Part shown: in pieces, positions 10,807-45,229 of the stretch
How positions within the stretch are numbered: position 1 is the first letter of the stretch
Layout: each line of letters opens with the position of its first letter
Source: a phage
Sequence record: OZ346221.1
Reading direction: 5' to 3' (one strand)
Length of the DNA stretch: 45,229 bases
The notes under the pieces: generated by a model
Told to the model about the DNA's origin: nothing
Seen by the model: only the letters and a program-made list of their open reading frames with translations
Database searches by the model: none
Program-made: the position numbers and the translations under genes

Positions 10807-10810
10807 TGCA

Positions 10811-10964
10811 GCGGGACAGATCGGGACGTCCCGTTTTGTCCCACCCCTGAAATGTGCATACCTATTCGAATTTATTGCATAAACTAAGCGGGACAGATCG
10901 GGACGTCCCGTTTTGTCCCACCCCTGAAATGTGCATACCTATTCGAATTTATTGCATAAACTAA
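10811..10964. repeat. 77-bp direct tandem repeat (2 units) containing the palindrome GGGACGTCCC
   Basis: Two adjacent near-identical units beginning GCGGGACAGATCGGGACGTCCCGTTTTGTCCC and ending TTATTGCATAAACTAA. Confidence 0.8.
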
Positions 10965-11121
10965 GCGGGACAAAAAGCGGGACAAACAAGGGGCGGGACA
11001 AAGCGGGACAGCACCCCGTCCCCACCAGTGCTGCCGCGGGGTTTAGCCGATCGGGACAGCGGGACAGCACCCCAGTCTTTCAGACTAGACGGGGGTCAGT
11101 GGCCCCCCTCGTCTGAGACTG
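10958..11121. repeat. iteron element copy A (six GCGGGACA-type direct repeats plus a GC-rich hairpin)
   Basis: CTAAGCGGGACAAAAAGCGGGACAAACAAGGGGCGGGACAAAGCGGGACAGCACC...CGGGACAGCGGGACAGCACCCCAG...GACGGGGGTCAGTGGCCCCCCTCGTC; flanks identical to the copy at 40113..40276. Confidence 0.75.
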
Positions 11122-11188
11122 AATAAGGATTGTTTTAAAATCGCTGATACAATGACAATCGGCAACTGCATAAAAAGGGGACTGCATA

Positions 11189-21350: not shown

Positions 21351-22919
21351 ATGGCAGCGGGTACGCTATCCGTAACGAACAATAGCAAGGCGGTAGTAGG
21401 GGTCGGCACAACGTTTACCGCGTTTAAAGCTGGCGACTTCTTAACGCTGGTGGTAGGGCAAGTTCCTTACACCGTGGCGATCGCATCAATCAAAAGTAAC
21501 ACGGCGCTTACGCTGGTGCTGCCGTTCGACGGCCCGACGGCAACCGGCCTAGCCTGGGACGGCATCAAACGTGACACCATGTCATTGACTACGATGGGCG
21601 TTACCGTCCAGGCACAGAAAGCATTTCGTTTGATGATCGCCGATGAAAACAACTGGCGTGCAATCTTCGGCGACGCTGAAGAAATCACCGTAACGCTGCC
21701 GAACGGGCAAGTCATGCAGGGTATGTCATGGGGCTATCTGTCGCAGTTGATGAAACAGATCGACCCAGTGGAAATGCGCGACCTGCAACAACAAGCCGCC
21801 GCATCGGAAGCAGCCGCGCAAGGATTTCGCAATGAGGCAGAAGGCTTCAAGACCGAGACGGCGGGTATTCGCGACGCCACCAATACCATCAAGACGCAGA
21901 CGAACCAGATCAAAACTGATACGCAGGCCATCAAGACGCAGACGAACCAGATCAAGACGGATACGCAGGCCATCAAGACGCAGACGAACCAGATCAAGAC
22001 GGATACGCAGGCCATCAAGACGCAGACGAACCAGATCAAGACTGACACCGGCGTTATTCGAGATCAGGCCAATACAGCGAAGAGGGACGCGCAAGCCGCC
22101 CGCGATGCCGCGCAGGGGTATCGGGACGAAGCCGAAGACTTCAAAAACGCGATCGACCCTACGCAATTCATGAAGAAGTCGCAGAACCTGGCAGACGTCG
22201 CAGATAAATCGGCGGCACGCGCTAATCTTGGCGTTGGTGATGATAGTATCGTTAAACACGCAACATTACGTCTGAACGGAGGCGAATCGCTAACCTTCAA
22301 TGATGTCGAAAGAAACGGTTTGATTATATCAAACGCGTCTTTCGGGATGGATAGCTGGGTCGGGCAGACGATGCATAAGTGGTACACGGATTGGACACGA
22401 TCTGGCTTGGTCAGGGGCGGCGATGCCCACTTATCGGACTACCGTGTCCACGTGTGGAAGGATGGTTATACGGAGGCTTTATTCCGCTTCCTACCGGACG
22501 GCAGGCTGATTAGTGGTAACAGCAGCAACCCTTCGGTTAACGAGTTCCAGAAAGCGGCGCTATCGGACCGCGACCTTAAAAAAGAAATCCAATACACTGA
22601 CGGCGAGGAAAGCTACAACCGCGTTCGTCAATGGCTTCCGGCAATGTTCAAGTATAAGGAGTCTGACGTACAGCGATACGGCCTTATCGCACAGGATCTG
22701 GCAAGGATTGACCCAGAATATGTGCACTTGCTGCCGGGTTATGCCATTTATGAGGATATCAAGGGGGTGGACGAGGAAGGCAACGAAGTTGTAGTCGACC
22801 GAAAGGAAATCGGGTATACGGACGATGTGCTGTCACTAGATAGTAACGTGCTGTTGATGGATCTGTGTGCCGCCTTCGTTCACCTGTTGCGGAAAGTGGA
22901 AAAGCTGGAAGGTAAATAA
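21351..22919 (+). CDS. tail fibre protein with C-terminal S74-type intramolecular chaperone domain
   Basis: 522 aa from internal ATG with GAGGA RBS; C-terminal SDRDLKKEI...YGLIAQDL signature; 14-aa tandem repeats AIKTQTNQIKTDTQ in the shaft. Confidence 0.75.
   Translation: MAAGTLSVTNNSKAVVGVGTTFTAFKAGDFLTLVVGQVPYTVAIASIKSNTALTLVLPFDGPTATGLAWDGIKRDTMSLTTMGVTVQAQKAFRLMIADENNWRAIFGDAEEITVTLPNGQVMQGMSWGYLSQLMKQIDPVEMRDLQQQAAASEAAAQGFRNEAEGFKTETAGIRDATNTIKTQTNQIKTDTQAIKTQTNQIKTDTQAIKTQTNQIKTDTQAIKTQTNQIKTDTGVIRDQANTAKRDAQAARDAAQGYRDEAEDFKNAIDPTQFMKKSQNLADVADKSAARANLGVGDDSIVKHATLRLNGGESLTFNDVERNGLIISNASFGMDSWVGQTMHKWYTDWTRSGLVRGGDAHLSDYRVHVWKDGYTEALFRFLPDGRLISGNSSNPSVNEFQKAALSDRDLKKEIQYTDGEESYNRVRQWLPAMFKYKESDVQRYGLIAQDLARIDPEYVHLLPGYAIYEDIKGVDEEGNEVVVDRKEIGYTDDVLSLDSNVLLMDLCAAFVHLLRKVEKLEGK
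21885..22049 (+). repeat. 42-bp in-frame tandem repeat (about 3.9 units) inside the tail-fibre gene
   Basis: GCCATCAAGACGCAGACGAACCAGATCAAGACGGATACGCAG repeated; units 2 and 3 identical, units 1 and 4 slightly different. Confidence 0.8.
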
Positions 22920-35020: not shown

Positions 35021-35527
35021 TTAATCTTCCAGTTCGAAATAGGTTTCGACGATTTCTTTTAACTCTGTGTGGAAGTCTTCGACGTCGTCATCTTCCAGCT
35101 TGGCGATTGATTTGATCTCGAACGACTCCAGCAGGTCGTCGAATTCGTCGTTCGCATCGTCGTCATCACCACCGGCGATAATCGCGGCATACTGTTTGAT
35201 TTCGTCGCGCATCTCCGCCAGCGGATCAGCATCTTTCTTACCTTTGCCGTTCGCCGGTGCTTTTTTAGCCTTAGCCGGTTTTTCGTCTTCGGCGTCTTCG
35301 TCGTCATCTTCTACGACTTCTTTTTTGGCCTTACCTTTCGCCGGTGCTTTTTTAGCTTTAGCCGGTTTTTCGTCTTCGGCGGCATCGTCGTCATCTTCTT
35401 TTTTGGCCTTAGACGGCTTCTTGTCTTCCTGCTTACCAACGGCAGCGCCAACAGTTTCATAATGCTTTGCGATGGTTTCCAGTGCTACTACGCCGCGAGT
35501 GATCAGGTTTACGATTTGCTCAAACAT
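35021..35527 (-). CDS. acidic low-complexity protein, first gene of the leftward early operon
   Basis: 168 aa from internal ATG (MFEQIVNL...) with GGAGAT RBS; two KPAKAKKAPA-type units and a strongly acidic C-terminal third. Confidence 0.5.
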   Translation of the reverse strand: MFEQIVNLITRGVVALETIAKHYETVGAAVGKQEDKKPSKAKKEDDDDAAEDEKPAKAKKAPAKGKAKKEVVEDDDEDAEDEKPAKAKKAPANGKGKKDADPLAEMRDEIKQYAAIIAGGDDDDANDEFDDLLESFEIKSIAKLEDDDVEDFHTELKEIVETYFELED

Positions 35528-35723
35528 GGTATATCTCCGATTGGTTAAGTTTAGGTGTCGGCAGTTAACTTCGTCGGTGGCCTTAACATATTGCCCGGTT
35601 GCGCGTTCTCCCGTTCGGGTAGTGGACCGGGTTATATAATCACGGTTGGGAATCCTGACACTTCGATCCGGCCCCTGCGTTGCCCCTCTCCAGTTTGCGT
35701 CCTGCATCCTGTCGACGGGGGGA

Positions 35724-35928: not shown

Positions 35929-36258
35929 ATGAATATTGACGACGCAATCGAAATGTTAACTAAGACTGTTTGCAGTGAGACAAGCCGGTCCTGGGCATAT
36001 ACCGATGCCGTGGGTGCGGTGCTATTTGAGATCGAACGTCTGCGACTTACCGAAAAAGAATTGCGCGCGAAGCTGGAATTACTCAACGGTACGGCAGCAA
36101 GCAAGCTGCAAAAGCACAATGAGGAAATGGAAGAATACAAAAAACAGGTTATCCGTTTGCGCGATGAGGGGAAGTCATGGGCAATGATCGCGGAGTTGAC
36201 AGGAATTAACCAAAGCACCGTGCGCTCTTGGGTACGCAATAACAAAACTTCGAAGTAA
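35929..36258 (+). CDS. HTH DNA-binding protein, putative early regulator
   Basis: 109 aa; coiled-coil middle and C-terminal helix-turn-helix-like GKSWAMIAELTGINQSTVRSWV. Confidence 0.5.
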   Translation: MNIDDAIEMLTKTVCSETSRSWAYTDAVGAVLFEIERLRLTEKELRAKLELLNGTAASKLQKHNEEMEEYKKQVIRLRDEGKSWAMIAELTGINQSTVRSWVRNNKTSK

Positions 36259-36268
36259 GGCAACGGCA

Positions 36269-38533
36269 ATGAGCTTAATTAAATTCGCTGTAACAAGACC
36301 CGCTAAAAAAGGCGAAAAAGCCAGGGCGGAAAACTTCCAGATGACAACTGATGAATTTTTCGAATTTATCAATGATGCGAAAGAAATATCATCAGTGCAT
36401 ATCAACAAGACCGAGGATAAAGCCGAGTATGCGCGCCGCAAGCGCAAGGCCGATGGCATCGTGGCATATACCAGTGACGGCCTACGCCGTAAGACCAGCG
36501 CGGTGGACCGCTCGATCCTGTTCTTTGATATCGACCGTACCGACACTCGCACCTTGCGCCGCTGCCGTAAGGCTTTCATCGATGCGGGGCTGGAGCACGT
36601 ATTCCATACAACAACCGGCGACCGCCACCCGCTGAAAGGCGGCACGCGTTGCGCACGTTTCCTTGTGCTCACAGACAAGCCCGTACCGGCGGAAGACCTG
36701 GGCCGCGTCCAGTACGCGCTGTTAGACCAACTGGGCCTGTCTGATGTGGACTTCGACGATTGCACCAAAGACACAAACCGCCTGATGTACCTACCACACC
36801 AGCAGTCTGTCATTAAGTGCCACTACGGAAAGCGCGCCAGTGTGCGTCGTCTGCTTCGCCGGGCTGACAGGCTGGGAGTGGAGAAAGAGGAAGTACGCCG
36901 CGAGCTTACCCAGGGCGACGACGCAGTGGCTGACGGCATTCTGGACTGGTGCTTCCAAGCAGGATTCGAGGAGTTATCCTCCGGTCGCGGTTATGAAGTG
37001 CCGTGCCCGAACGAACATCTGCACAGCGGCGAAGGGTCGACGGCTATTATAGTCAAGGATGGCGAGATCCGTTTCAAGTGTATGCACACCGGCAACGAGT
37101 GTTGCTCTGAGCTGAACAGACACCAGCACCTGGCGCTACGTCTTATCGGGATACCGGACCACCTGAACGTCGAGCCGCACAACATGTCACGTAAGCAAAT
37201 CGCCGCCATCCTCCCAGGGCTGGACGACGAGGAAGTCGAATCCTTATATGAACATATTGTTGATGCGGTTGGCGACGGCGAAGAATACGGCGTGTGCACC
37301 GATGCGGATCTGGATAACGAGCCGGTTGCGCTGTTCAGTAAGCACGACCCGATTATCGAGGGGTTGATTAACTTTAAATCGACCTGGTACATGGCGGGTG
37401 AGTCGAATATCGGTAAGTCTTTCTACGTGCTGGGCCAGATGGGCGCGGTTGCCGCGGGTATTCCGTTTGGTGGCGCGAAGGTCGTCCAGTCTCATTGCTT
37501 CTATTTCGACGCGGAAGGTGGCGAAGCCTCCAACCAGCGTAAAGAAGCATTGCAGATTAAATATGAGCACGACCTGGACAAGCTGCACATTATCGATCTG
37601 CAGTCACGCGGCTGGGATATCACCAGCAAATCGGGCTTGCGCGAAGTTATCAGCTTTATCAACCGCACCGCTAACGGCGAACCGGTTGGCCTGGTGGCGT
37701 TCGACTCACTAAACCAGACTGTTGCGTTGCGGTCCGCCGAGGCTAAACCGTTCGACGAGAACAACGCCAGCGATATGGGTGAAGTGGTCAAAGCGCTGAA
37801 GGCCATCGCGGAAAATACAGGTGGCAGTGCGGGCGTCATCCACCACCCGGCTAAAGGTGCAAACGGCAGCAGAACGCCACGCGGGTCCGGCGCGCTGCAT
37901 GGTGCTGTCGATTCTGCGTTCTTCCTGGAACAGCCGGACGACAACCAGCCCGGACAATTGAACCTGTATCACGAAAAGTCACGTAACGGCATCAAGCAAG
38001 CGCCGCGCGGCTTCGTCCTGCTCAAGTGCAAGGTGAAGGTGGATCTCCGCAAGTCAGAAGCGTTCGAGGCGCACCAGTCCACCAGCACCGGGCCAGACTT
38101 CGGCGACGTGGTTGCCGGATGGGACGTCAAGCCGATTGCCTCCACGCCACGCGACGAGACTCTCTACCTCGTACCGGTTGCCCTGGCACCGTTCGCTATT
38201 GAACAGGCGAAGGCGGCGGGCAAGGCCGCGGTTAAGGAAGAGAACACCGCCGGACCGCGCAACGAAAAAGAGAAAGTGCTTTATGCGGCACTGGAAAAAC
38301 TGATGGAAGATAACCCGTACCATACTGGATTCAGTAAATCGGCAATTGTCCGCCAGGCGGGACTCGCAAAAGGTGGCACTTCGACGAAGGCAATCGACGA
38401 TATGGTGGAGCGCGGGGTAATAGGTTTTTATACAGATCCGCACACCGGGGCCATCTATGGGTCTTCTAATTTGGTCATCAAATCGGATATCCCTATCACG
38501 CTTTCCGCGACCGATGACGATTTAAAAGATTAA
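36269..38533 (+). CDS. primase-helicase (zinc-binding primase-type N-terminal region, RecA-like ATPase, C-terminal winged-helix-like domain)
   Basis: 754 aa; Cys/His cluster CPNEHLHSGEG...CMHTGNECC; Walker A MAGESNIGKS; VAFDSLNQ; C-terminal GFSKSAIVRQAGL...AIDDMVERGVIGF. Confidence 0.75.
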   Translation: MSLIKFAVTRPAKKGEKARAENFQMTTDEFFEFINDAKEISSVHINKTEDKAEYARRKRKADGIVAYTSDGLRRKTSAVDRSILFFDIDRTDTRTLRRCRKAFIDAGLEHVFHTTTGDRHPLKGGTRCARFLVLTDKPVPAEDLGRVQYALLDQLGLSDVDFDDCTKDTNRLMYLPHQQSVIKCHYGKRASVRRLLRRADRLGVEKEEVRRELTQGDDAVADGILDWCFQAGFEELSSGRGYEVPCPNEHLHSGEGSTAIIVKDGEIRFKCMHTGNECCSELNRHQHLALRLIGIPDHLNVEPHNMSRKQIAAILPGLDDEEVESLYEHIVDAVGDGEEYGVCTDADLDNEPVALFSKHDPIIEGLINFKSTWYMAGESNIGKSFYVLGQMGAVAAGIPFGGAKVVQSHCFYFDAEGGEASNQRKEALQIKYEHDLDKLHIIDLQSRGWDITSKSGLREVISFINRTANGEPVGLVAFDSLNQTVALRSAEAKPFDENNASDMGEVVKALKAIAENTGGSAGVIHHPAKGANGSRTPRGSGALHGAVDSAFFLEQPDDNQPGQLNLYHEKSRNGIKQAPRGFVLLKCKVKVDLRKSEAFEAHQSTSTGPDFGDVVAGWDVKPIASTPRDETLYLVPVALAPFAIEQAKAAGKAAVKEENTAGPRNEKEKVLYAALEKLMEDNPYHTGFSKSAIVRQAGLAKGGTSTKAIDDMVERGVIGFYTDPHTGAIYGSSNLVIKSDIPITLSATDDDLKD

Positions 38534-38708
38534 ATTCTGCGCGCATTGGTTGCCGATATGGTAATTCCCATATCGGTGAATGATTAAATTTTGCGCGCAT
38601 TGGTTGCCATTTTGAGTGTTTTTACCTGGTCGTATTGGTTGCCGTGTAGTGTAAATATAGTGAATAGTTATGCAATAAAACTGCATAAAGTAAGCGGACA
38701 GAAAGCAC
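37229..38708 (+). repeat. tandem duplication unit, copy 1 (3' half of primase-helicase gene plus downstream non-coding DNA)
   Basis: Near-identical to 38709..40188 with scattered substitutions; unit about 1480 bp; junction next to GTAAGCGGACAGAAAGC (approximate coordinates). Confidence 0.8.
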
Positions 38709-40188
38709 GAGGAAGTCGAATCCTTATATGAACATATTGTTGATGCGGTTGGCGACGGCGAAGAATACGGCGTGTGCACCGATGCGGATCTGGATAACGA
38801 GCCGGTTGCGCTGTTCAGTAAGCACGACCCGATCATCGAGGGGTTGATTAACTTTAAATCGACCTGGTACATGGCGGGTGAGTCGAACATCGGTAAATCG
38901 TTCTACGTGCTGGGGCAGATGGGTGCGGTTGCCGCGGGTATCCCGTTTGGCGGTGCGAAGGTCGTCCAGTCCCATTGCTTCTATTTCGACGCGGAAGGTG
39001 GCGAAGCCTCCAACCAGCGTAAGGAAGCATTGCAGATCAAATACGAGCACGACCTGGACAAGCTGCACATTATTGACCTGCAATCACGCGGCTGGGATAT
39101 CACCAGCAAGTCGGGCTTGCGCGAAGTTATCAGCTTTATCAACCGCACCGCTAACGGCGAACCGGTTGGCCTGGTGGCGTTCGACTCACTCAACCAGACT
39201 GTTGCGCTGCGGTCCGCCGATGCTAAACCGTTCGACGAGAACAACGCCAGCGATATGGGCGAAGTGGTCAAGGCGCTGAAGGCCATTGCGGAAAATACAG
39301 GCGGCAGTGCGGGCGTCATCCACCACCCGGCTAAAGGTGCAAACGGCAGCAGAACGCCTCGCGGGTCCGGCGCGCTTCATGGTGCTGTCGATTCCGCGTT
39401 CTTCCTGGAACAACCGGACGACAACCAGCCCGGACAATTGAACCTGTATCACGAAAAGGCGCGTAACGGCATCAAGCAAGCGCCGCGCGGATTCGTCCTG
39501 CTTAAGTGCAAAGTTAAGGTAGATCTCCGCAAGTCCGAAGCGTTCGAAGCCCACCAGTCCACCAGCGCCGGGCCAGACTTCGGCGATGTGGTTGCCGGTT
39601 GGGACGTCAAGCCGATCGCATCCACGCCACGCGACGAGACTCTTTACCTCGTACCGGTCGCCCTGGCACCGTTCGCCATCGAACAGGCGAAGGCCGCTGG
39701 CAAAGCCGCAGTTAAGGAAGAAAACGCCGCCGTACCGCGCAACGAAAAAGAGAAAGTGCTTTATGCGGCACTGGAAAAACTGATGGAAGATAACCCGGAC
39801 CATACCGGATTCAGTAAATCGGCAATTGTCCGCCAGGCTGGGCTTGCGAAAGGTGGCACATCGACGAAGGCAATCGACGATATGGTCGAGCGCGGCGTGC
39901 TCGGTTTTTATACCGATCCGCACACCGGGGCCATCTACGGGTCGTCGAATATTGTCATTAAAACGAGTATACCCATCACGCTTTCTGCGACCGATGATGA
40001 TTTAAAAGATTAAATGTTGCGCGCATTGGTTGCCATTTCGAGTGTTTTTAGCTGGTCGCATTGGTTGCCGTGTAGTGTAAATATATTGAATAGTTATGCA
40101 ATAAAACTGCATAAACTAAGCGGGACAAAAAGCGGGACAAACAAGGGGCGGGACAAAGCGGGACAGCACCCCGTCCCGCCCCCGGATG
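38709..40188 (+). repeat. tandem duplication unit, copy 2
   Basis: Second copy of the 3' half of the primase-helicase gene, followed by the complete iteron element (approximate coordinates). Confidence 0.8.
38772..40013 (+). CDS. stand-alone paralogue of the primase-helicase C-terminal half (ATPase plus winged-helix-like domain)
   Basis: 413-aa ORF with GTG start and no obvious RBS; about ten amino-acid differences from the parent, most nucleotide differences synonymous; may be an untranslated remnant. Confidence 0.45.
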   Translation: MCTDADLDNEPVALFSKHDPIIEGLINFKSTWYMAGESNIGKSFYVLGQMGAVAAGIPFGGAKVVQSHCFYFDAEGGEASNQRKEALQIKYEHDLDKLHIIDLQSRGWDITSKSGLREVISFINRTANGEPVGLVAFDSLNQTVALRSADAKPFDENNASDMGEVVKALKAIAENTGGSAGVIHHPAKGANGSRTPRGSGALHGAVDSAFFLEQPDDNQPGQLNLYHEKARNGIKQAPRGFVLLKCKVKVDLRKSEAFEAHQSTSAGPDFGDVVAGWDVKPIASTPRDETLYLVPVALAPFAIEQAKAAGKAAVKEENAAVPRNEKEKVLYAALEKLMEDNPDHTGFSKSAIVRQAGLAKGGTSTKAIDDMVERGVLGFYTDPHTGAIYGSSNIVIKTSIPITLSATDDDLKD

Positions 40189-40276
40189 ACGCGGCCTGGC
40201 GGGGAGCGGGACAGCGGGACAGCACCCCAGTCTTTCAGACTAGACGGGGGTCAGTGGCCCCCCTCGTCTGAGACTG
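40113..40276. repeat. iteron element copy B (candidate replication origin)
   Basis: Six GCGGGACA-type repeats plus the same GC-rich hairpin as copy A; directly downstream of the primase-helicase region; followed by an AT-rich stretch with TGCGGNTTG repeats. Confidence 0.75.
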
Positions 40277-40435
40277 CATAAAATCCTGGATTGCAAAATA
40301 CACGGCAGCATGTTGCGGATTGCGGTCGTCGCGGAACTAGGCAACCAATGCGGGTTGTATTATGTTGAGTGAAAAATGCGGTTTGCAGTCTCAGCAGATA
40401 GCGATCAACTTTTTCATGCGCGTGATTAATATTGG

Positions 40436-44678: not shown

Positions 44679-45229
44679 ATGGCAGAAATCAAAGTTAAGG
44701 GCCGACGCGCCAAACTGGACGGACGAGTGGCGGTAACCCCGCGCCGTAAACCAGGCGAGCAAACCGAGCATACTAATCTCGGACCGGAGATCGAGTACGG
44801 AAAGCGTCGTAAAGGCGGCAAATGTGGACGCCCTACTGACTACCGATCCGTTTACTGCGACCAGCTTCGTCGCTATTTCGCCGACGCCGACGCCTGGCAG
44901 GTCAACTACTCCGCTAAAGGCGCTGCGCAAGTAATCCCCCGCAACAAAATGCCAACCTTCGGTCGATTTGCCGCGGAAATCGGCGTGGGCGTAGCTTGCC
45001 TGTATCGCTGGGCGCGTGCGCATGAGGAGTTCGCTGAGGCGATGGCGGACGCAATGGAGTTACAAAAAACCTTCCTGATGGAAGCTGGCGGCGTGACCAT
45101 CGCGGCGGGCTTCGCAACATTCCTGCTTAAAGCAAACCACGGCGTCCGCGACGATGTGCCGCTGGATGACGACGAAGATGATAACGGCGACGTCGTAGTG
45201 GAACCTTCCGGCAAAGGCCAGGGTGAATA
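44679..45229 (+). CDS. terS: terminase small subunit (frame runs off the window end; stop completed by position 1)
   Basis: RBS AAAGGG then ATG at 44679; HTH-like PTFGRFAAEIGVGVACLYRWARAH; acidic C-terminus; no in-frame stop in the window, the last TA plus A of position 1 gives TAA overlapping the terL ATG. Confidence 0.7.
   Translation, partial: MAEIKVKGRRAKLDGRVAVTPRRKPGEQTEHTNLGPEIEYGKRRKGGKCGRPTDYRSVYCDQLRRYFADADAWQVNYSAKGAAQVIPRNKMPTFGRFAAEIGVGVACLYRWARAHEEFAEAMADAMELQKTFLMEAGGVTIAAGFATFLLKANHGVRDDVPLDDDEDDNGDVVVEPSGKGQGE

Follow-up and report, generated by a model that had tools for sequence, protein, structure and literature searches.

We found that a coliphage DNA of 45,229 nt, sequence record OZ346221.1 (the window, meaning the whole stretch analysed), contains a diverged direct tandem repeat that covers the 3′ half of the primase-helicase gene and the adjoining non-coding DNA, and that this repeat is very probably an assembly artefact, in which sequence from a second, related variant was placed beside the genome's own copy. 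An earlier inspection of the letters alone (hereafter the sequence-only reading) took the tandem arrangement to exist in the phage. We do not retain that claim, as the copies first differ after an initial run of exactly 127 identical nt, and the record has been rotated. The window corresponds to a complete Dhillonvirus genome, one full circle relative to the phages SECphi18 and UHP65. All coordinates below are those of the window and refer to its plus strand; the junction between the copies carries no strand.

Structure of the repeat and its junction

Copy 1, as delimited by repeat alignment, spans 37227-38706 (1480 bp) and is abutted in exact tandem by copy 2 at 38707-40133 (1427 bp). A repeat of about 1.4 kb at 94% identity is well above chance expectation, and the diverged direct repeat of about 1.48 kb described by the sequence-only reading is indeed present in the sequence. 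In the coding part, the copies showed 80 mismatches over 1301 aligned nt (93.9% identity). Third codon positions account for 69 of these, first positions for 9 and second positions for 2. Neither frame is interrupted, and alignment of the encoded proteins over 433 residues shows 10 differences, which matches the earlier description of about ten residue differences, mostly synonymous change and intact frames. The non-coding tail aligned over 114 nt with 6 mismatches, followed by a 1-nt indel and a further 11 nt with 1 mismatch. The copy alignment also revealed a 54-bp indel 3′ of the stop codon, carried by copy 1 only (38528-38581), which contains one extra ATTGGTTGCC-type unit and the palindrome CCGATATGG-N6-CCATATCGG. 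A palindrome-containing insert had been noticed at this place before; the palindrome was located there, and the length previously given as about 45 bp is corrected here to 54 bp. This indel is polymorphic across the genus, as database matches cover either ~1480 or ~1427 bp.

The junction at 38706/38707 (GAAAGC/ACGAGG, within 38700-38713) reads GTAAGCGGACAGAAAGC followed by ACGAGGAAGTC, the same letters as quoted previously, and falls at the first GCGGGACA-type unit in the repeat region downstream. No microhomology was found at this junction. Copy 2 continues unbroken into the downstream repeat region, where six clustered GCGGGACA repeats and an inverted-repeat hairpin (40120-40221), equivalent to "region B" in the repeat_region annotation of phage SO-1, lie directly downstream of what we take to be the true primase-helicase gene. 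The GCGGGACA motif occurs 15 times in the window against 2.3 expected, with clusters at 40120-40221 and 10811-11066, and a 17-pair GC-rich hairpin is located at 40144-40183, just past the region where the copies end. A perfect 77-bp tandem repeat at 10810-10963 was considered as a second artefact, 77 also being an assembler k, and was rejected because relatives align across both of its units.

The 127-nt identity and the rotation of the record

The two copies were directly observed to be identical over exactly their first 127 nt (37227-37353 in copy 1 and 38707-38833 at the start of copy 2), with the first mismatch at nt 128 (37354/38834). No other 127-mer is repeated anywhere in the circular window, again a direct observation, and no 128-mer is repeated there. 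Elsewhere the copies are identical over at most 80 consecutive nt; a further shared run of at least 127 nt, of which there is none, would have caused the graph paths to merge. The maximum k-mer of SPAdes-type assemblers is 127. An exact start of this length is the mark left by an edge in a k=127 de Bruijn graph, and two edges departing from a single vertex of such a graph have exactly this appearance. The chance that a random breakpoint is followed by an allelic difference at precisely this distance of 127 nt is ~2.7e-4, or ~5e-3 when the same chance is summed over k = 55, 77, 99 and 127. When a k=127 graph was simulated from the 43,749-bp circle left after removal of copy 1 and a UHP65-like fragment, copy 1 was recovered as exactly one 1480-nt unitig (37227-38706), and the main unitig began at 38707. 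Since the fragment supplied had been cut off at 38706, only the left boundary of the 1480-nt unitig is independent evidence. The last upstream difference between the window and the UHP65 class lies at 37216 and the first copy-1-specific site at 37354, a spacing of 138 nt that exceeds k+1, so that no k-mer links copy 1 to the left flank of this genome.

Base 1 of the window is the ATG of terL, and the record is cut inside the terS stop codon (TA/A), which directly identifies the record as rotated; the rotation was probably automatic. The practice of re-circularising phage genomes at terL, using Dnaapler and similar tools, has been described (PMC11783317). Because of the rotation, the ends of the original contig can be internal, and we place them at 38706/38707, with 38707 as the putative start of the original linear contig.

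These data would be accounted for by the following series of events. The main phage (P) would represent a new Dhillonvirus lineage, ~92-93% identical to known ones, and a second variant (Q) with a UHP65-like helicase half would have been present in the same material, presumably a mixed sample. Copy 2 would belong to P, representing its own 3′ half of the gene together with the downstream non-coding DNA, and copy 1 is most likely a Q segment, that is, one dead-ending k=127 graph edge appended to the genome. In the graph of the presumed k=127 assembler, P and Q would touch at a 137-nt identity block (37217-37353). The contig would begin at the last 127-mer of this block, leave it by the P edge (the sequence that now starts at 38707), circle the genome once and return to the same 127-mer at 37227-37353 (graph vertex S). 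Rather than closing the circle, the assembler would then have followed the Q edge (37354-38706) to a putative dead end at the GC-rich repeat/hairpin region; alternatively, a separate 1480-nt Q edge may have been appended to the main contig, with an identical result. Finally, the linear contig would have been taken as circular and rotated to the terL start codon, joining its ends at 38706/38707. We infer that the junction lacks read support. Co-assembly of two variants is the scenario that the sequence-only reading itself had named as refuting its claim.

The right end of copy 1 shows no k-based signature, and a dead end or tip is therefore needed to explain it. In the alignment, the end of copy 1 (38690-38706) carries a 1-nt deletion in a G run at ~38695, which changes GCGGGACA to GCGGACA 12 nt before the junction and is absent from 13 relatives and from copy 2. 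Such a deletion would be compatible with a path of low coverage that stops in a dead end and carries errors, and the deletion and the GC-rich hairpin together appear to fit a coverage break at this point.

SPAdes contigs of circular or circularly permuted phage genomes have been described to carry artificial terminal overlaps of k-mer length, 127 bp (PMC5923482). The present record resembles those cases in having an exact 127-mer at the inferred contig start and an internal tandem repeat after end joining. It differs from them in that the contig ran 1353 nt further, into a variant edge, producing a repeat of 1.48 kb that is 6% diverged. We also considered a terminal-redundancy heterozygote, in which one virion molecule or a long-read consensus would carry redundant ends with different alleles. 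Dhillonvirus DNA is terminally redundant and circularly permuted (PMC9022532, PMC13348001), and 1.48 kb, ~3.3% of the genome, would be a plausible size for the redundancy. However, this explanation does not predict an identity of exactly 127 nt, and a population consensus would not be expected to keep a heterozygous redundancy at a fixed position; we regard it as very improbable.

Allelic origin of the copies and survey of relatives

The different allelic origin of the two copies was evident directly from comparison with related phages. Copy 1 was nearest to UHP65 (97.9% identity overall, p-distance 0.0196), and over 37227-38300 it showed only 8 differences from UHP65 (~99.3% identity), as compared with ~92% identity in the left flank. 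Copy 2 was nearest to SECphi18 (95.7% identity, p-distance 0.0375). Copy 1 differs from copy 2 at ~6-7% of sites, as against 2% from UHP65. No variants private with respect to 13 relatives were found in copy 1 over 37227-38300; in copy 2, such variants occur as they do in the left flank, although less densely. Of the two origins proposed by the sequence-only reading, it is the second, one copy derived from a related phage, that agrees with these affinities.

The first of these origins, an old duplication within one genome whose copies diverged under purifying selection, appears extremely improbable. The dN/dS between the copies is low (0.046) and both ORFs are intact, as this origin would require; however, the copies are not each other's nearest neighbours, the other copy ranking 11/14 among the neighbours of copy 1 and 9/14 among those of copy 2, and in 0/1000 bootstraps was either copy the nearest neighbour of the other. 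Moreover, dS between the copies (0.266) equals the genus-wide value (median dS 0.278 and dN/dS 0.03 for genus pairs), indicating that the synonymous excess reflects standing allelic variation and not divergence after a duplication. The count of synonymous against non-synonymous differences proposed earlier reproduced the synonymous excess and gave no sign of selection following duplication, since the dS and dN/dS values are those of any two Dhillonviruses. Divergence of this extent would also predate most splits among the relatives, yet none of them carries the repeat.

To be specific, the region is present once in the related phage records, and the duplication was found in 0/157 of them, so that the comparison with related genomes turned against the tandem arrangement. 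The sole record with two matching places is PQ843332.1 (Escherichia phage P-GXEC-L2P5, 88,607 bp), an 88.6-kb record deposited as one "complete genome" that comprises two genome-equivalents of Dhillonvirus, with 81-95% identity over the pieces that align. It was rejected as a precedent for a local duplication because it contains two whole genome-equivalents. It does indicate that co-assembled mixed Dhillonviruses reach public databases; the whole genome is doubled there, whereas a single 1.48-kb graph edge is involved here. The literature search returned no Dhillonvirus with a tandem duplication. Two 40-42-mers with private variants, used to look for a single-copy close relative of the backbone, had no match in IMG/VR, and the exact 754-aa and 413-aa proteins encoded in the region had none in a public assembly index.

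The genus is mosaic throughout, the whole genome forming a patchwork of similarity tracts, and the 127-nt block has an exact match in UHP65 and BEK2-2 and a near match in several other phages. A similarity jump to UHP65 at 37217, 10 bases from the repeat boundary, was considered as the trace of a double-strand break whose repair copied a co-infecting phage. This reading was set aside in view of the genome-wide patchwork and the presence of the 127-nt allele in UHP65 and BEK2-2, and because the graph explanation is simpler.

Another possible explanation is a genuine tandem duplication of two alleles, in which two different Dhillonviruses co-infected a cell and the helicase region of one, at its end, was joined illegitimately to mid-gene sequence of the other. 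The edge of the repeat region may have served as a break-prone site, the recombinant would be viable with an additional helicase-only ORF that may be expressed, and headful packaging would tolerate the added length. We consider this explanation unlikely, although several observations agree with it: the copies are distinct natural alleles with both frames intact, the mosaic genome attests to frequent exchange, and the junction adjoins a potentially fragile repeat/hairpin region. Dhillonviruses package their DNA by a headful mechanism (PMC9022532, PMC13348001), which implies that an extra 1.5 kb is physically tolerated, and 45,229 bp is inside the size range of the genus. On the other hand, such a duplication does not explain why the first allelic difference should come after exactly 127 identical nt (p ~3e-4), and its junction lacks microhomology. 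The junction occurs in no related record, and a 30-mer spanning it had no match in IMG/VR or the JGI metagenomes, both of which were scanned. The duplication should also be easily lost by recombination, given that identity between the copies extends over as many as 127 consecutive nt and that relatives have an annotated single-strand annealing protein.

Genuine tandem duplications are classical in headful or size-tolerant phages, such as lambda, T4 rII and P22, where the copies are initially identical and arise within one genome. The arrangement described here is like them in being a direct tandem of at least 1 kb, with a novel joint without homology and a length tolerated by the capsid; it is unlike them in that the copies are population alleles and the boundary has an assembler-specific length. 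That the tandem arrangement is physically real, with a second helicase-half allele acquired through an illegitimate join and the 127-nt identity a coincidence, seems to us quite unlikely. If it were true, the phage would also have gained part of the repeat region downstream, and the second helicase half would give rise to a potential separate helicase ORF.

The primase-helicase gene and consequences for the record

As assembled, the primase-helicase ORF (36269-38533, 754 aa) joins a P-type N-terminal half to a Q-type C-terminal half and is probably a chimera. The true gene is likely 36269-37226 joined to 38707-40013, which also encodes 754 aa and keeps the reading frame intact. The primase-helicase matched phrog_3228 (replicative helicase-primase) with E=0 over residues 1-752, and a RecA-type ATPase domain was detected as Pfam AAA_25 at residues 357-531 (E=2.4e-19), together with a weak match to RSF1010 RepA (PDB 1g8y, E=0.46), a distant relative. 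The gene is thus a normal member of the bifunctional primase-helicases of phages and plasmids (phrog_3228) with a RepA/AAA_25 helicase domain, and once the artefact is removed it would be one 754-aa gene, the same as in all relatives. For the C-terminal part, where the sequence-only reading had suggested a winged helix, a search against Pfam and NCBIfam gave no match, and a single-sequence AlphaFold model of the C-terminal 210 residues had a mean pLDDT of 35, too low for use. The longest ORF of copy 2 (38772-40013, 413 aa) has a GTG start and no obvious Shine-Dalgarno sequence, in agreement with the sequence-only reading. On the reconstruction given above, this "stand-alone helicase" arises from the artefact and corresponds to the C-terminal portion of the one true gene.

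The true genome is likely the window minus 37227-38706, predicted at 43,749 bp with a single intact primase-helicase gene. If the repeat is an artefact, the genome length on record is 1480 bp too great (45,229 vs 43,749 bp), the 413-aa "helicase" ORF is spurious, and the C-terminal half of the primase-helicase at 37227-38533 comes from a contaminating or minority variant, making the full-length protein chimeric. Such an error would mislead comparisons of gene content, species demarcation by nucleotide identity and the inference of duplications in replication modules. The value of this finding lies mainly in quality control: a diverged tandem repeat that opens with an exact run of a standard k (127, 141, 99, 77 or 55) and stands in a re-oriented record should be presumed an assembly artefact until reads show otherwise. 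Taken together, the tandem repeat in this Dhillonvirus is most likely an error of the record to be corrected, and not new biology.

The duplicated helicase half and its two alleles

The window is a complete Dhillonvirus genome of 45,229 bp (an HK578/SO-1-like E. coli siphovirus), and its whole length is a fine-grained mosaic of genus-pool alleles. Approximately 159 phage records match it, most of them with 90-95% identity. We found that the tandem repeat described in the sequence-only reading is present, copy 1 (37227-38706) being followed directly by copy 2 (38707-40133), with open reading frames in both and no microhomology at the junction between GAAAGC and ACGAGG. As a replicative primase-helicase the gene is unremarkable (phrog_3228, E=0; AAA_25 at residues 357-531), and the repeat begins within its linker, at residue 320, ahead of the helicase domain. 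The mostly synonymous change reported earlier was borne out, as 69 of the 80 differences in 1301 aligned coding bases lie at third codon positions, and the ten or so residue differences correspond to 10 amino-acid changes in 433 residues. The insert after the copy 1 stop also exists, but comprises 54 bases (38528-38581) instead of the ~45 bp claimed. This intergenic indel polymorphism 3' of the primase-helicase, containing an extra GATTAAATTNTGCGCGCATTGGTTGCC unit and a palindrome with 9-bp arms, is found in some relatives (e.g., StarDew and SECphi18) and not in others (e.g., UHP65 and EC115), and is variable genus-wide, the relatives' matches spanning ~1480 or ~1427 bp. Copy 1 also carries a nonsynonymous G-to-T change at 38318 (Asp to Tyr in MEDNP[D/Y]HTG), seen neither in copy 2 nor in 13 relatives, which could be a real variant of a minor phage or a low-coverage error.

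Copy 1 showed 97.9% identity to phage UHP65, with only 8 differing sites in 37227-38300, as compared with ~8% of sites in the flank just upstream. The same jump in similarity recurred against six other phages, so that it is a property of the window and not of UHP65. Copy 2 was nearest to SECphi18 (95.7%) and ~94% identical to the remaining relatives. Between the copies, dS was 0.266 and dN/dS 0.046, indistinguishable from the values between one Dhillonvirus and another (median dS 0.278, dN/dS 0.03), and neither copy was the nearest neighbour of the other in 1000 bootstraps. These results exclude divergence in place, and with it the earlier proposal that both copies had been under purifying selection since duplication. 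Judged from these sequence comparisons, the copies are two alleles drawn from the genus pool.

The neighbouring gene and repeats elsewhere in the window

Upstream of the primase-helicase, a gene of 109 aa (35929-36258) is variously annotated among relatives: 'Gam nuclease inhibitor', 'transposase', 'resolvase' or 'HTH protein'; its Pfam support is confined to a C-terminal helix-turn-helix (HTH_23, Sigma70_r4_2). The Dhillonvirus helicase region is also matched by a record labelled Campylobacter phage A144 (MG065648.1, 35,197 bp; ~95% identity) and by single Acinetobacter- and Salmonella-labelled phages, which may reflect wrong host labels or contamination.

The window has 15 copies of the octamer GCGGGACA, where 2.3 would be expected. 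Of these copies, 13 sit in two clusters (seven at 10811-11066 and six at 40120-40221), which the SO-1 record annotates as repeat 'region A' and 'region B' and which might act as replication origins or arrays for protein binding. A 195-nt stretch is shared at 87% identity between 10932-11126 and 40087-40281. At 10810-10963 a unit of 77 bp is repeated perfectly in tandem, each copy with GCGGGACA, an inverted GGGAC/GTCCC pair and TTGCATAAACTA. Since 77 is a common k, an assembly artefact was considered here and rejected, because UHP65 and SECphi18 align across both units. In-frame repeats of 21-nt period (unit approximately CCATCAAGACGCAGACGAACCAGATCAAGACGGATACGCAGG) at 21844-22090, in the tail-fibre region by SECphi18 alignment, probably encode a repetitive coiled-coil-like segment. 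Within the minus-strand ORF 35021-35707 (228 aa), a tandem repeat of 81-87 nt with 89% identity, together with shorter repeats (35232-35420), encodes a low-complexity segment.

A 127-nt identity and the assembly of the record

The first 127 nt of the copies are exactly identical (37227-37353 and 38707-38833) and the 128th differs. No other 127-mer occurs twice in the whole circular window, and every 128-mer in it is unique; elsewhere the copies agree over at most 80 consecutive nt. SPAdes-type assemblers go up to k=127, and two edges leaving one vertex of a k=127 de Bruijn graph have 127 nt in common and differ at the next base. The chance that a random breakpoint precedes the next allelic difference by exactly 127 nt is ~2.7e-4, or ~5e-3 summed for k = 55, 77, 99 and 127. 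End overlaps of 127 bp are documented for such assemblers (PMC5923482). When a k=127 graph was simulated from the window minus copy 1 (a circle of 43,749 bp) with a UHP65-like fragment added, copy 1 emerged as exactly one 1480-nt unitig (37227-38706), its left boundary being independent and its right boundary fixed by fragment construction; the main unitig began at 38707 and the shared unitig was 137 nt. The nearest upstream site separating the window from UHP65-class phages (37216) lies 138 nt from the first copy 1-specific site (37354), so that at k=127 copy 1 is unlinked to the left flank of the genome.

Alignments of the window with SECphi18 and UHP65 each form one full circle. Base 1 aligns with the first base of the SECphi18 terL gene, and the terS ORF at the window end (from 44679) obtains its stop codon only with base 1. 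The stop is split by the record origin (TA at 45228-45229, A at base 1), owing to a one-base overlap of terS and terL. After assembly the record was therefore re-oriented so as to begin at the terL start codon, and the split stop suggests that this rotation to the terL ATG was automatic; phage genomes are re-circularised with terL as start by tools such as Dnaapler (PMC11783317). We propose that the contig would have started at the shared 127-mer, taken the main phage's edge first, circled the genome and, on returning to the 127-mer, followed the edge of a minor variant to a path end adjoining the GC-rich repeat and hairpin region (a 17-pair hairpin lies at 40144-40183). Rotation of this linear contig to terL would then have fused its ends at 38706/38707. 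Copy 1 lacks one nucleotide in its last GCGGGACA-type repeat, 12 nt from its end; no relative shares this deletion, which is consistent with an error-bearing dead end. Deletion of 37227-38706 restores one intact 754-aa gene and a genome size inside the genus range. Taken together, we consider the duplication very probably an assembly artefact.

A genuine two-allele duplication, formed by an illegitimate join between co-infecting phages, could carry its extra 1.5 kb under headful packaging (PMC9022532, PMC13348001), but leaves the 127-nt coincidence without explanation, and we regard it as improbable; artefacts of other types appear more improbable still. The junction 30-mer had no match in IMG/VR or JGI metagenomes. 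Among 157 related records matching the helicase half, none has a second copy of it except PQ843332.1 (Escherichia phage P-GXEC-L2P5; loci L016 and L017), an 88,607-bp GenBank 'complete genome' containing two Dhillonvirus genome-equivalents, with aligned pieces 81-95% identical and many fragmented genes. It looks like a two-phage co-assembly or a double walk around the circle, and provides a precedent for mixed-Dhillonvirus co-assembly. What the artefact reading usefully offers is a corrected record and a simple rule for screening.
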